Position numbers and translations under genes: made by a program
Shown: positions 4,214 through 18,537 of the stretch, one piece after another
How positions within the stretch are numbered: the first letter of the stretch is position 1
Layout: every line of letters begins with the position of its first letter
From: Microbulbifer sp. GL-2
Lineage (GTDB): Bacteria; Pseudomonadota; Gammaproteobacteria; Pseudomonadales; Cellvibrionaceae
DNA length: 40,000 bases
Direction of reading: 5' to 3'
Assembly (NCBI RefSeq): GCF_007183175.1
Contig: NZ_AP019807.1
Coordinates: 2,403,785 to 2,443,784, forward strand
Notes under the pieces: model-generated
Told to the model about the DNA's origin: nothing
The model's input: only the letters and a program-made list of their open reading frames with translations
The model's database searches: none

Positions 4214-4336
4214 CTTAAAAAAGGTGTTACAGGTGTGCAGGTGTTACAGCATGGCTGAAAGCCTCGTATTTATTGGCTTTCCGCTGTCACACCTTTCTGT
4301 TACCCCAAGAGTGTTACAGCAAAAAGGTGTAACAGG
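4214..4336 (+). repeat. Iteron block A (putative origin), GGTGT(T/G/A)ACAG family in both orientations
   Basis: ggtgttacag at 4223-4232 and 4240-4249. Variants are ggtgtgcag, ctgtcacacc, ctgttacccc, agtgttacag and ggtgtaacag. The whole ~125 bp block recurs inverted at 18413-18537. Confidence 0.7.
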
Positions 4337-4405
4337 AATGAGGCCCGCAGTTCTGTTGGAAGCCTTATGGGGCGGGGGTTAAAGCTAAAAATATAAGGAA
4401 AACTA

Positions 4406-7234
4406 ATGGCACGCTTTGATATTAAACGAGTGGCAGACTTCGCCCTTGATCGGGCTGATGAAGTATTGGCGCACTGGGCTCCAGATGGCTCATACCAGGG
4501 AGCTGAATATATTGCTCTTAACCCAACTCGATCTGATAGCAGCAAAGGGTCCTTCTCAGTAAATCGCAATACCGGTGCATGGGCGGATTTTGCAGCTGAT
4601 GAAAAAGGTGGGGACCTCGTATCGTTGGTTGCCTATCTTGAGGGGGTAAACAATGGAGAGGCAGCACAAAGGCTTGCTGCTTTTCTGGGGCTCTCTGAAG
4701 GGGAGTCTATACCGCCTAGCTCAACCTATAAGTCGAAAACCAAAAAGCCAGCCGGTAACTCCTGGGAAGCCGTATTGCCGGTACCTTTAGAAGCAGAGCA
4801 TTCTTGCCCAACAACCCATCCCCATAACGGTAAACCCTCTAAAGTTTGGGAGTACCGTGGGCAGTGCGGCTCACTGCTAATGAAGGTGATGCGTTTTGAC
4901 ATTCAGAAAGGCGATGCAAGATCAAAAGACTATCGCCCCTTAACCTATTGCCGGGATTCAAATGGACGCAACTCTTGGAGATGGAAGCAGCCGGTAAAAA
5001 AGCGGCCACTCTATAAGCTGGATCTATTGGTAAAGCGCTCTAAAGCTCCGGTATTGCTAACCGAAGGTGAAAAGGCTGCGGATGCAGCTGCTAGCCTGCT
5101 GCCGGGTTATGTTTCCATGACCTGGCCCGGTGGCAGTAAAGCGCTGGGCAAAGCAGATTTTAAGCCCCTACATGGAAGGGAAGTACTTCTCTGGCCCGAT
5201 AATGATGCAGCAGGCAAAGACTGTATGCTTAAGCTGGCCGCGATCCTACACACTATGGAGTGTAAGGTTTCTACAGTGTGTTTAGAGTCCTTAGGACCTA
5301 AGTGGCCAGCAAAAGGCGATGCGGCTGATGTGGAAGCTGTCGGTATTACAAGAGAGCAGCTTACAGCCTTAATTACAGAGGGAAAGTTTTTAACGTCCTA
5401 TCAACCCGTGGCAACAGAACATCCAGCCCAAAATAAGGGAGGAAGTAATAAAGGGGCCGAGTCTGGGCAATTTGTAGTAAATGATCGTGGGGTTTTCTTC
5501 CCTGTTCAGGGGGCAGATGATGAGCCTTCACTAATGAGAATCTGTGATCGCCTGGATGTGCTTGCTTTAACTCGTGACTCCCAAGGAAGAAACTGGGGTA
5601 CGTTGGTTCGCTTCCTTGACCCTGATGGCATTGTTAAAGAGTGGAATATACCCAGTGAGTACCTAGCGACCGAGGGCGGTGCAGAAGTGCTTAAGCAGCT
5701 ATATAGCATGGGACTCCGCGCTGAAGCTGGGCAGCAGCCAAGGCGTAGAATTATTCAATATCTGCAAACGACAAAAAGCCCTAATCGCTATGTTTTAGTG
5801 AACAAACTGGGCTGGCATGGCAATGCATACCTACTACCGAATGAAACCCTGGGAACCCCTGTAGAGCCACTGTATTTTTACTCCACAAGCCCAGATCTCA
5901 ACAAGATAAAGTTAAGTGGTGAGCTTCAGCAATGGCGTGAGCATGTAGCGAGCTATTGTAAGAACAATACCCGATTGTTATTTTCGGTTTCAGCGGCATT
6001 TGCCGGGCCCCTACTAAATCTCATTGGTATGGAAACGACCGGCTTTCACTTCTTTGGTGATAGCTCCCAAGGCAAAACGACCCTGCTAAAAGTAGCTGCT
6101 TCAGTGTATGGCGGTCCTGATTTTGTTCGTACCTGGCGCAGTACGGATAACGCACTAGAGAGTATTGCTGCCTCCCACTCTGACGGCCTTTTAATCCTTG
6201 ATGAGATCAGCCAATGCGATCCCCGTATTGTGGGGGATATTGCCTATATGCTGGGAAATGGCACTGGCAAGGCAAGGGCTAATGATCGCGGAGGCGTACG
6301 CGGGAATGCATTTGAATGGAGGCTTGTCTTCCTATCTACAGGAGAGCGTACGCTTGATCAACAGATGGCTGAAGTGGGCAAGAAAGCAAAAGCTGGGCAA
6401 GAGGTTCGGCTACTGGCTATTCCCTCGGATACAGGGAGCGGAGCCGGTATCTTTGATGAACTGCATGGGTTTGCTGGTGGTGCTGCGTTATCGCGTTATA
6501 TGGTTGAGAAAGCTTCCTTGTTCCATGGAGTACCCCTTTATACGTTTATCAGAGAGCTTTGCGCTAGCAACTTGGAAAAGCTGGCAAGCCAGATTCGCCG
6601 AGAGCTTGTGAACTTTGCCGCAGAGCTGTCTGATGATGTAAGTGGTCAAGTACGCAGAGCAGCAGACAAGTTTGCTCTTGTTGGCTTTGCCGGAGAGCTG
6701 GCTTCCACTGCGGGAATTACAGGCTGGACTAAAGGTATGGCTATGGAAGCGGCCAAATCCTGTTTTAGTGCTTGGGTATCGGCCCGTGGCGGTGTTGGAA
6801 ACCTGGAGGACCGGCAGACCTTGTCAGCACTGAGATTATTTTTTGATCTCTACGGAGAGTCCCACTTTACCCGCTGGGATCGAGAGGACTTTACCGCTGA
6901 TGATCACACTGTTCGCACCCTGAAGCGCTGCGGCTACCGGAAAACGCTACAAGACAGTAATGCCCTTGAGGGGCAGGCTTGCTCTGAAACTGTTTACTAC
7001 GTTTACCCGGCCACTTTCAAAGCTGAGGTTTGCAAGGGGCTTAGTGATCGCAAGGCGAAGCAACTACTGGCCGCCTGTGGTGCTTTGGAGCGTGATGGCA
7101 ACGGGAAATTCTCGATACCAACGCGTTTGCCAAACAGTGGGCGTAACCCTGAGCGGGTGTTGATCATTCGACCTCACTTGATTCCTGTTGAAGATGATGG
7201 AGAAAAGGGACTACTTACGAAAAAGGCCGCGTAG
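4406..7234 (+). CDS. Primase-helicase (Toprim domain plus DUF927-type P-loop NTPase), the element's replication protein
   Basis: Toprim-like segment LTEGEKAADAA...LLWPDNDAAGKD. Walker A GDSSQGKTT and Walker B LLILDEIS. The N-terminus GSFSVNRNTGAWADFAADEKGGDLVSL is typical of island and satellite primases. Confidence 0.85.
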   Translation: MARFDIKRVADFALDRADEVLAHWAPDGSYQGAEYIALNPTRSDSSKGSFSVNRNTGAWADFAADEKGGDLVSLVAYLEGVNNGEAAQRLAAFLGLSEGESIPPSSTYKSKTKKPAGNSWEAVLPVPLEAEHSCPTTHPHNGKPSKVWEYRGQCGSLLMKVMRFDIQKGDARSKDYRPLTYCRDSNGRNSWRWKQPVKKRPLYKLDLLVKRSKAPVLLTEGEKAADAAASLLPGYVSMTWPGGSKALGKADFKPLHGREVLLWPDNDAAGKDCMLKLAAILHTMECKVSTVCLESLGPKWPAKGDAADVEAVGITREQLTALITEGKFLTSYQPVATEHPAQNKGGSNKGAESGQFVVNDRGVFFPVQGADDEPSLMRICDRLDVLALTRDSQGRNWGTLVRFLDPDGIVKEWNIPSEYLATEGGAEVLKQLYSMGLRAEAGQQPRRRIIQYLQTTKSPNRYVLVNKLGWHGNAYLLPNETLGTPVEPLYFYSTSPDLNKIKLSGELQQWREHVASYCKNNTRLLFSVSAAFAGPLLNLIGMETTGFHFFGDSSQGKTTLLKVAASVYGGPDFVRTWRSTDNALESIAASHSDGLLILDEISQCDPRIVGDIAYMLGNGTGKARANDRGGVRGNAFEWRLVFLSTGERTLDQQMAEVGKKAKAGQEVRLLAIPSDTGSGAGIFDELHGFAGGAALSRYMVEKASLFHGVPLYTFIRELCASNLEKLASQIRRELVNFAAELSDDVSGQVRRAADKFALVGFAGELASTAGITGWTKGMAMEAAKSCFSAWVSARGGVGNLEDRQTLSALRLFFDLYGESHFTRWDREDFTADDHTVRTLKRCGYRKTLQDSNALEGQACSETVYYVYPATFKAEVCKGLSDRKAKQLLAACGALERDGNGKFSIPTRLPNSGRNPERVLIIRPHLIPVEDDGEKGLLTKKAA

Positions 7235-7240
7235 CCCATA

Positions 7241-7280
7241 CCGTTTACAGGTGTTGTAAACGGTGTGCAGCCGTTTACAC
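7241..7280. repeat. Iteron-like hairpin just after the primase gene
   Basis: ccgtttacaggtgttgtaaacggtgtgcagccgtttacac contains the stem ccgtttaca/tgtaaacgg and a ggtgtgcag unit as in block A. Confidence 0.4.
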
Positions 7281-7556
7281 TCTCAAAATAAGTAACTGCC
7301 TATTTGGTAAACAATTAGCTTGTAGGGGATAAACCCAAAGCTTGCCGGTGGCTTTAGTTGGCCAATTTCAAAGTGCACTCTATTTGCAGCTTTGCGGACC
7401 AGACTATGTGTAATCGTGTACTATCCATCCAGATATTCAAGCTTTACACAAAGCCTGCCCCAGTAGACGATGCCTCTTCGGTATTAAATTAATTTGGCAT
7501 TTAAAGGTTTTAGAATCAAACACCAACATTTTACTATTCTATCTTTTCAATTAGGA

Positions 7557-17709: not shown

Positions 17710-17912
17710 TGACTGATAAAGATAAAGTGAAACGCCTGGCTGAGGCCAGACAAAAGAAAGGCTGGACGCAAAAGGAGATCGAAGAATTTGCCAAGCGCCG
17801 CAGCCATGAACTAAAGAAAATTTCCGAGGATACTGAGGAGCCTGATCACCTCGCCTCTGGCACCCAAAAAACCATCGAAGAGATATGCAAGGATGACGAC
17901 AAAGACGACTAA
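17709..17912 (+). CDS. Small charged hypothetical protein (67 aa)
   Basis: The ATG overlaps the GNAT stop (TGATG), suggesting translational coupling. Confidence 0.45.
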   Translation: MTDKDKVKRLAEARQKKGWTQKEIEEFAKRRSHELKKISEDTEEPDHLASGTQKTIEEICKDDDKDD

Positions 17913-18048
17913 GCCTCTGTCTGATACGGAGAAGCAGTTCACCCCCCAAAAGGGGGAAGTATCCCCGGAAGATGCCCGTACTAAGGCTACTATCTTTGCG
18001 GCTCAGATTAAGGGCCGGATGAAAAGTAAAGGGGCTAAGTTGAAATGA
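17893..18048 (+). CDS. Candidate small ORF (51 aa, MTTKTTKPLSDTEKQFTPQKGEVSPEDARTKATIFAAQIKGRMKSKGAKLK)
   Basis: Translated by hand, because it falls below the track's size cutoff. It overlaps the previous ORF by 20 nt and ends at the 16-bp palindrome. Confidence 0.25.
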   Translation: MTTKTTKPLSDTEKQFTPQKGEVSPEDARTKATIFAAQIKGRMKSKGAKLK

Positions 18049-18063
18049 AGGGGGTACCCCCTT
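18048..18063. repeat. Perfect 16-bp palindrome aagggggtaccccctt (possible terminator or protein-binding site)
   Basis: Self-complementary as read. A second hairpin, cccccaaaaggggg, lies at about 17941-17955. Confidence 0.4.
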
Positions 18064-18412
18064 GTTGAGTGTCAAGATTGCAGTAAAGGTATGTATTGTG
18101 GTCAACCTGCGCAGAACAAGTCATTTCATCGATTGCATATTGCTTTCAGTATTGCTGTCGGGCTGGCAATTATTGCGGTCATGCAGCTACTGGGATCATA
18201 GACTCGCTTCGCGTGGATTCTTACTCTCCTTTCTTAATTTGGCCCTGCTCAAATCTGCCTGCCTCAGTGGTTTGACCATAGTGAGGGCTGGCTTGCCTCA
18301 AGTACTCTGTTTTCTATTGATTGATTTGCTGTAAGACGCTATCGCGTGCCTAGATGTTTGGTCAAAAGATTACTAGTTGTACGTAGCCACAATTGCCGCA
18401 CTTTAGAAGTAT

Positions 18413-18537
18413 GTTGTAACACCTTTGGGCTGTGAAACATTAGGGGTAACAGAAAGGTGTGACAGTACAAAGCCCATAACCATGCGGCTTACAGCGAATC
18501 TGTAACACCTGTACACCTGTAACACCTTTATTTTAAG
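18413..18537 (-). repeat. Iteron block B: inverted copy of block A (4214-4336)
   Basis: The reverse complement reads cttaaaataaaggtgttacaggtgtacaggtgttacag...ctgtcacacctttctgttacccc...aaaggtgttacaac. It is colinear with block A and shares long identical runs. Confidence 0.75.

Follow-up and report, generated by a model that had tools for sequence, protein, structure and literature searches.

Inverted iteron blocks on either side of pri-rep and cargo in a Microbulbifer tRNA-Leu island: a candidate split replication origin

Replication of phage P4 needs two regions, ori and crr, of which crr is a direct 120-bp duplication, and in iteron plasmids looping or handcuffing between distant iteron arrays is a known mechanism, with copy-control arrays such as incA relative to incC/oriR in P1 and incC relative to oriS in F. 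In Staphylococcus aureus pathogenicity islands (SaPIs) and phage-inducible chromosomal islands (PICIs) the published origin lies 3' of rep, with iteron sets on both sides of a spacer (PMC6092414, PMC7581432), SaPI Rep recognises its iteron origin through the C-terminal domain (PMC7581432), and Gram-negative PICIs carry int, alpA and pri-rep in that order, all rightward (PMC6092414). Another described relative, phiAH14b (KU708005; PMC4936722), is a helper-dependent, encapsidated satellite of Pseudomonas. Here we describe a 19.5-kb island of Microbulbifer sp. GL-2, inserted in tRNA-Leu(GAG), which holds two inverted iteron blocks, A and B, on either side of pri-rep, the gene of its presumed initiator Pri-Rep, and of the cargo that follows. 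The analysis started from a 40-kb stretch of the chromosome (NZ_AP019807.1, positions 2,403,785 to 2,443,784; hereafter the window, in whose numbering positions are given). We propose, with a probability of roughly 0.62, that the island's origin module is present twice, as A and as B, and that the pair is a split PICI-type origin bound by Pri-Rep at both copies, which would act together. No description of this split, inverted layout was found in the searchable literature; PIMEs, known from a preprint, were considered and set aside as a different family with repA and trb genes.

Two inverted copies of one iteron module

Block A (4197–4336, forward strand), the proposed proximal origin module, and block B (18414–18553, reverse strand), the proposed distal one, carry their sites in the same order, B being an inverted copy of A. 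A repeat search returned them as the 118-nt arms of an inverted repeat (4217–4334 and 18415–18532), 81% complementary and with 14,080 nt between them. MAFFT aligned A and B colinearly with long identical runs, and in a blastn search of the whole 4.95-Mb genome 4197–4334 matched the reverse strand of 18415–18553 at E = 1.4e-27. The decamer GGTGTNACAG occurs at seven exact sites in the window, all within the two blocks, against an expectation of 0.16, and none of 100 shuffles reached seven; with one mismatch allowed, block A holds six sites (+ + - - + +) and block B five, in mirrored order. A first-pass annotation of this DNA had reported two inverted blocks of ~125 bp packed with decamers in both orientations, and on each of these points the comparison of A with B bears it out.

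Block A starts with a G-run/C-run and an A-tract, followed by three contiguous direct iterons (4223–4249, period 8–9 bp), a first group which includes an overlapping third GGTGTGCAG, then by a 34-nt spacer with the hairpin GAAAGCC-11 nt-GGCTTTC, two inverted iterons (4284–4306) and two direct iterons (4310–4335). It ends 70 nt upstream of the pri-rep ATG (4406), within the 231-nt region upstream of that gene, whilst block B lies 11 kb downstream of it. Rfam found nothing in or beside the blocks, only terminator-like noise at attR, and block B with its extension (below) had no match in the phage collection.

Homology of the B type runs about 160–180 nt past the region shared by A and B, to 18715. 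This extension (18554–18715, reverse strand) opens with the G-run motif GGGGCGAGGGGAGGG on the block's strand and is co-conserved with block B both in other islands and in a solo chromosomal copy. By blastn, 18416–18715 matches genomes G173 (83%), G201 (85%), G203 (99%) and G204 (74%), and also a third, B-type copy in the same chromosome (G000:C1:264955-265243; L004:9956-10244; 78%), which has a 180-nt extension. This solo copy is found 5 kb past tRNA-Leu(CAA), with genes for an ART-HYD1 toxin, DUF6881, macro and PIN proteins around it. To judge from its extent, the distal module measures about 300 nt (block B plus 18554–18715) and not 125.

The same annotation had also placed a third mini-copy directly after the pri-rep stop (7241–7280, forward strand), which did not hold. 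This stretch is a hairpin, CCGTTTACA-GGTGT-TGTAAACGG, with no decamer match even at one mismatch; it is kept only in the closest islands, and the M. magnicolonia island (L014) has an unrelated hairpin instead. It is probably a clade-specific, terminator-like stem, and at most a vestigial site.

Recurrence of the pair in related and distant islands

Homologous elements, in which the presence and spacing of the two blocks were checked, carry both, inverted, with and without an integron. A and B are inverted and 8.6 kb apart in the G173 island, which occupies the same tRNA-Leu(GAG) site, 14.5 kb apart in M. epialgicus and 7.3 kb apart in M. magnicolonia, where no intI match was found; M. echini has both on two contigs, and the very fragmented assembly of M. 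okhotskensis yielded A only, on contig 619. Across 12 copies, column conservation is 94% in the iterons, 81% in the spacer and 60% in the flanks. The A-type copies form one orthologous group and the B-type copies another, with the exception of M. magnicolonia, whose A and B are 89–90% identical over 139 nt, whilst each shares only about 78% identity with the blocks of other islands. Being closer to each other than to their orthologues, these two copies point to concerted evolution of the pair. In G173, attR is directly followed by another attL-like stretch and another copy of int (L010:1730-2909; aligned over residues 1–335, 89% identical), left over from a tandem island that used this tRNA-Leu site.

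For more distant relatives, 400 genomes of the same order were searched with Pri-Rep, and contigs of database homologues were added; among 8,000 candidates scored, 318 homologues passed E ≤ 1e-5. In eight distant islands, with a Pri-Rep 41–47% identical to the window protein, we found two inverted iteron blocks 6–15 kb apart, block 1 directly after int and block 2 toward the far island end, with a tRNA gene adjoining the element wherever this was scanned. Similarity between the two blocks of an island was measured by blastn, and a pair in which it was not detected rests on iteron clustering only. The pairs lie at 2407–2512 and 9926–10039 in L044 (G452; iteron GGGAACA; similarity not detected), 2115–2237 and 16436–16558 in L045 (G566; GTGTTACR; not detected), 15042–15174 and 1620–1742 in L046 (G541; GTGTTACR; 100% over 25 nt), 17774–17897 and 4076–4198 in L047 (also G541; GTGTTACR; 73% over 78 nt), 2474–2583 and 9493–9601 in L048 (G206; TGGGAAC; 81% over 72 nt), 7549–7686 and 13840–13977 in L066 (P. 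aeruginosa; GGTGTTAT; 94% over 138 nt), 7165–7290 and 21912–22037 in L068 (S. stutzeri; GGTGTTC; 81% over 127 nt), and 7859–7970 and 14627–14741 in L070 (Gilvimarinus; CGTTACA; 96% over 23 nt). Their blocks share one layout, in which three contiguous direct iterons (period 8–9 bp) are followed by a spacer of ~35 nt, one or two inverted iterons and two direct ones. Each of these islands uses its own iteron in both blocks, so that both copies change together with the element. The pair is thus a real, conserved cis-element pair. Islands built on int, AlpA and a DUF927 Pri-Rep are frequent in Pseudomonas (P. aeruginosa included), Stutzerimonas and marine gammaproteobacteria, and they carry defence systems.

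The spacer takes two forms, being more than 80% A+T in L044–L048 and L070 and an inverted repeat in the GTGTT-type blocks of the window (block A, 4256–4280), of L066 (7595–7625 and 13901–13931) and of L068 (7200–7230 and 21972–22002). The arms of this repeat differ between copies with the pairing kept (CTGAAAGCC/GGCTTTCAG vs. GCTGTAATCC/GGGTTACAGC vs. GCTGGAGCCC/GGGCTCCAGC); the spacer copy of M. magnicolonia folds poorly. A further shared feature is a G-run motif, GGGG-N2-3-GGGG (GGGGCGAGGGGAGGG, GGGGCTAGGGGG, GGGGGAGAGGGGG), which precedes the first iteron of the distal block by 15–30 nt. The corresponding stretches of the window are 18545–18570 at block B and 4196–4213 at block A, and the motif is also found upstream of block 2 in L044, L045–L048, L066 and L070, islands whose iterons differ widely. 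At the proximal block a C-run (CCCTWWRCCCC) takes the place of the G-run, and the motif is therefore direct on the chromosome where the blocks are inverted.

Other relatives arrange their iterons differently. L057 and L058 have three clusters, one upstream of rep, one downstream of it and one distal; in L049, L060 and phiAH14b two inverted blocks are adjacent just after rep; and L061 and L063 have a single palindromic block in that position. In the adjacent form the three-iteron ends point outward, as they do in the split form, where pri-rep and cargo occupy the would-be centre, and we read the pair in the window as a split version of the palindromic PICI/SaPI-type origin. L060 (G252) also contains a tandem duplication of its whole palindromic double iteron block (L060:6942-8193, 82% over about 450 nt), one copy with GGGAACA and the other with GGCAACA, which suggests an iteron-specificity switch in progress.

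A putative initiator and the possible roles of the pair

Pri-Rep (4406–7234, forward strand, 942 aa) matches DUF927 in Pfam (E = 5.4e-79) together with DUF6371, its N-terminal 320 aa match PHROG primase families and DUF6371, and the PHROG descriptions for the protein are DNA primase and primase/helicase. In phmmer searches against the PDB it hit 8tch (SaPIbov1 Rep) at 2.3e-15 and 5dgk (Cch of the staphylococcal cassette chromosome mec, SCCmec) at 1e-8. An AlphaFold model of its last 322 residues (621–942; confidence, pLDDT, 76) gave these same two structures as its only confident fold matches in Foldseek (5dgk, E = 2.9e-4; 8tch, E = 3.9e-3; probability 1.00, TM score about 0.33). Cch, itself a DUF927 protein, is related to SaPIbov1 Rep (PMC7581432), and DUF927 proteins are also found in islands mobilised by conjugative plasmids (PMC7449626). 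By these matches Pri-Rep is a primase fused to a helicase of the SaPIbov1-Rep/Cch type (DUF927), and its modelled C-terminal region appears homologous to the origin-recognition part of SaPI Rep, from which a DNA-binding role may be predicted.

Int and Pri-Rep are the only proteins common to all compared islands; neither for AlpA nor for any other small protein was a homologue found in every island with the pair. Int has its own arm repeats, and between the window and L045–L047 the GTGTTAC iterons are shared whereas the arm repeats differ (GGTGCTA vs. GGATACA). Elimination and the homology with SaPI Rep together make Pri-Rep the best candidate for the protein that recognises the iterons, and we consider it the most likely binder of both blocks.

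Under the proposed mechanism, Pri-Rep would bind GGTGTTACAG-containing DNA through the C-terminal region it has in common with SaPIbov1 Rep, and after induction each block would be occupied by Pri-Rep hexamers. Melting would follow in the adjacent A-tract or in the spacer, which is a hairpin here and AT-rich in other islands. The two Rep-loaded blocks would then act jointly, whether as a pair of loading sites of opposite orientation or as a single origin formed by looping. The outcome would be replication of the excised circle, in function much like P4 ori and crr. On this model both blocks would fire as origins, and neither copy would be dispensable.

The first-pass annotation had likened the two blocks to the bipartite ori/crr of P4 bound by its alpha primase-helicase. 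The two-region arrangement is supported by the conserved inverted pairs and their co-changing iterons; kinship with P4 alpha is not. The island resembles P4 in its integration at a tRNA gene, its P4-type integrase, an AlpA/Vis-like protein, a multifunctional primase-helicase, and two separated cis regions with the same short iteron in both orientations. It differs in that Pri-Rep is a DUF927 protein, not P4 alpha (D5_N/Primase_Cterm), in that Pfam and PHROG searches found no psu, sid, delta or epsilon homologues, and in that the second site is one inverted copy at a variable spacing of 6–15 kb. The DUF927 protein of the SaPIbov1-Rep/Cch type makes the SaPI/PICI origin, not that of P4, the nearer family. 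With SaPIbov1 and EcCICFT073 the island shares a Rep-type helicase (by Pfam, sequence and C-terminal fold), the primase fused to Rep, the rightward order int, alpA, pri-rep from a specific att site, and blocks in which a spacer separates two iteron sets. Unlike those islands, it has only the clade-specific hairpin 3' of rep, where L049, L060, L061, L063 and phiAH14b have their origin-like blocks, and it carries two full inverted copies 14 kb apart. Unlike the PICI class, it has no packaging or capsid-redirection genes (terS, cpm-like) among the scanned open reading frames (ORFs), its cargo being an integron. Like the island, phiAH14b has int and AlpA and iteron blocks laid out + + + - + +, together with a topoisomerase-primase and a helicase, the last homologous to Pri-Rep residues 379–929, but in phiAH14b primase and helicase are separate genes and the inverted blocks are adjacent (9300–9527), directly after the helicase gene. 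The element is predicted to work like the SaPI/PICI Rep-iteron module, with which its initiator also belongs, and is not a member of the P4 family.

Several results weigh against a split, Pri-Rep-bound origin. In a sliding-window comparison of identity between same-iteron and different-iteron pairs, no segment of Pri-Rep tracked the iteron type, and the iteron types are only partly clade-consistent with the Rep tree. The window spacer is a GC-containing hairpin and not AT-rich as in the SaPI/PICI origins, and no DnaA boxes were found near the blocks. Block A lies in the pri-rep promoter region, a position from which autoregulatory and origin roles cannot be separated. Lastly, no pair was detected in the full-length relatives L065, L069 and L071, of which L071 is complete between its att repeats; the split layout is thus frequent, not universal.

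A stricter version of the split origin would be an obligate two-site origin, in which Pri-Rep bound at both blocks loops the DNA and so couples initiation to excision, or amplifies in situ the inter-block cargo, in this island an entire integron cassette array. In most islands one block lies by int-attL and the other by attR, so that such a loop would join the island ends. We hold this version to be possible, though rather doubtful; if it were true, the interval from pri-rep to block 2 would be a protected cargo slot set by origin architecture.

The main rival to the split origin is copy control, in which A would be the true origin and autoregulated promoter and B a non-origin array that titrates or handcuffs Rep. 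Iteron plasmids (P1 incC/incA, F, and R6K gamma with its distant alpha and beta origins) likewise have an array at either side of their initiator gene, block A occupies part of the region upstream of pri-rep, and the flexible spacing of 6–15 kb is as expected of a titration site acting in trans or in cis. The solo chromosomal copy shows, too, that a B-type block can persist alone. However, B is a full colinear copy of A, including spacer and flanking tract, and not just additional iterons, and in most of the distant islands block 1 adjoins int rather than pri-rep. In the classical relatives, moreover, two inverted blocks jointly form a single origin, and the likeness to iteron plasmids ends at the initiator, here a helicase-primase and not a Rep_3/RepA-type protein, and at the arrays, here whole-module copies in strictly inverted orientation. 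We regard copy control as unlikely.

Less probable again, in our view, is that the blocks are regulator arrays through which AlpA or another island protein would co-regulate two end promoters, with no direct role in replication. The place of block A within the region upstream of pri-rep is compatible with this, as is an RBS-like (ribosome-binding-site-like) GGAGG plus start codon after block 2 in L045–L047. Across islands, though, block 2 is followed by no conserved or credible ORF, nor was a conserved gene found downstream of it in any island, and the 180-aa frame read from block B (18105–17563) looks like an antisense artefact. No AlpA homologue or small protein accompanies every pair, a promoter and terminator scan around both blocks gave nothing above shuffle expectation, and the layout equals that of PICI origins (PMC6092414).

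The first-pass annotation also offered block B as the scar of a second related element, once beside or inside the island, which comparison with other islands largely refutes and which we now consider very improbable. Scars do occur, as the solo copy near tRNA-Leu(CAA), without int or pri-rep, and the second, truncated int after attR in G173 illustrate. Yet at least ten island lineages, some with different iterons, have the pair in an unchanged relative orientation and position, the iterons are better conserved than the spacers, and tblastn, even at E = 10, found nothing near block B left over from int, primase or another island protein. By this evidence block B is not debris. The same search found no such remnant near the solo copy, a scar that a sister island, since decayed, probably left behind; if Pri-Rep is expressed, that copy could titrate it or fire as an orphan origin.

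Equally improbable is the annotation's other suggestion, that the pair mediates inversion of the 14-kb segment, or a variant in which the blocks are the terminal inverted repeats of a transposon nested in the island. The geometry would suit such readings, with inverted repeats that bracket a gene-rich segment and several protein-binding sites per end, like the ends of Tn7 or Mu. In 13 of 13 islands, however, int and pri-rep point the same way with block 1 between them, and no inversion was seen. The segment has no invertase or transposase bar IntI, which most pair-carrying islands lack, the sites in each block face both ways around a spacer and are not end-like, and arms of 118 nt at 81% identity would serve homologous inversion poorly.

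Island context, cargo slot and significance

The tRNA-Leu(GAG) gene (66–151, forward strand; ARAGORN and Rfam) supplies the attL core with its 3' end (ttcaagtcccgccctgggcaccacatcaa, about 129–157), repeated at the other end of the island as attR, an imperfect direct repeat (19658–19685, forward strand). Between them the order is int, a 404-aa ORF, alpA, two small ORFs, block A, pri-rep, intI with its cassettes, and block B. The tyrosine integrase int (319–1557, forward strand) is of the P4 type with an arm-binding domain (Pfam Arm-DNA-bind_3, Phage_int_M, Phage_integrase), and repeat family D17 and a k-mer scan placed GGTGCTA arm-type repeats next to it, three direct and one inverted (256–314, forward strand), with two direct copies at the other island end (19584–19602). 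The same pattern is present at both ends of the M. magnicolonia island, and we take these repeats to be putative integrase arm sites, distinct from the iterons. The AlpA-family regulator/excisionase (3008–3256, forward strand) matches Phage_AlpA (Pfam, E = 3.8e-18), and orf404, orf185 and orf151 have no Pfam or PHROG matches. No capsid, terS, packaging or interference genes were recognised by Pfam or PHROG among the scanned island ORFs, of which the cassette ORFs were only partly scanned.

From block B to attR the island is ORF-poor for about 1.1 kb. This tail (18720–19660) is 92% identical to G173 over 950 nt, above the 83% of block B and its extension, and matches no Rfam family; a 90-nt piece of it (18958–19047) recurs at two other genome sites and in the M. 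magnicolonia island.

The cargo slot between pri-rep and block B (7557–17709) contains the integron integrase gene intI (7557–8603, reverse strand; Pfam), the attI region, a cassette array, recognised by the attC-like repeat families D6, D9 and D12 and by its ORFs, and the distal XRE and 171-aa genes. It had been suggested that insertion of the integron pushed the two regions apart. The slot holds other cargo in relatives, for example AAA and S8-peptidase genes in L068, and given a spacing of 7.3 kb without an intI match in M. magnicolonia, and of 6–15 kb with other cargo elsewhere, the integron appears to fill a general slot. On these spacings it did not split a once-compact origin in this lineage.

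The integron integrase itself is decaying in related islands (L011:12899-13489, L012:4847-5419, L013:13155-14197, L010:9140-9731). In M. epialgicus and M. okhotskensis only residues 12–208 are matched (about 79% identity), M. echini has two high-scoring segment pairs meeting at codon 122, which suggests a frameshifted intI, G173 retains a 52%-identical fragment, and in M. magnicolonia there was no match. The 270 bp between intI and the first cassette, on the attI/promoter side (8590–8861), has six more copies in the genome at 75–88% identity (about 817 k, 2,872 k, 4,395 k, 4,412 k, 4,539 k and 4,813 k), none of which adjoins the other two intI genes (2,822,901–2,823,869 and 4,441,871–4,442,893).

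Such islands have so far been assumed to have a single iteron locus on the 3' side of rep as their origin, like SaPIs and the PICIs of E. coli. If the split origin proposed here is correct, annotation of these islands would change, with block 2 marking the far end of the cargo slot, as would the cloning of minimal replicons from them and the view of their copy-number control and of the coupling between excision and replication. The islands would also offer a second, unrelated initiator family in which to test a two-site origin of the P4 kind, and the arrangement would explain why a replicative island can carry an integron and yet stay undisrupted.

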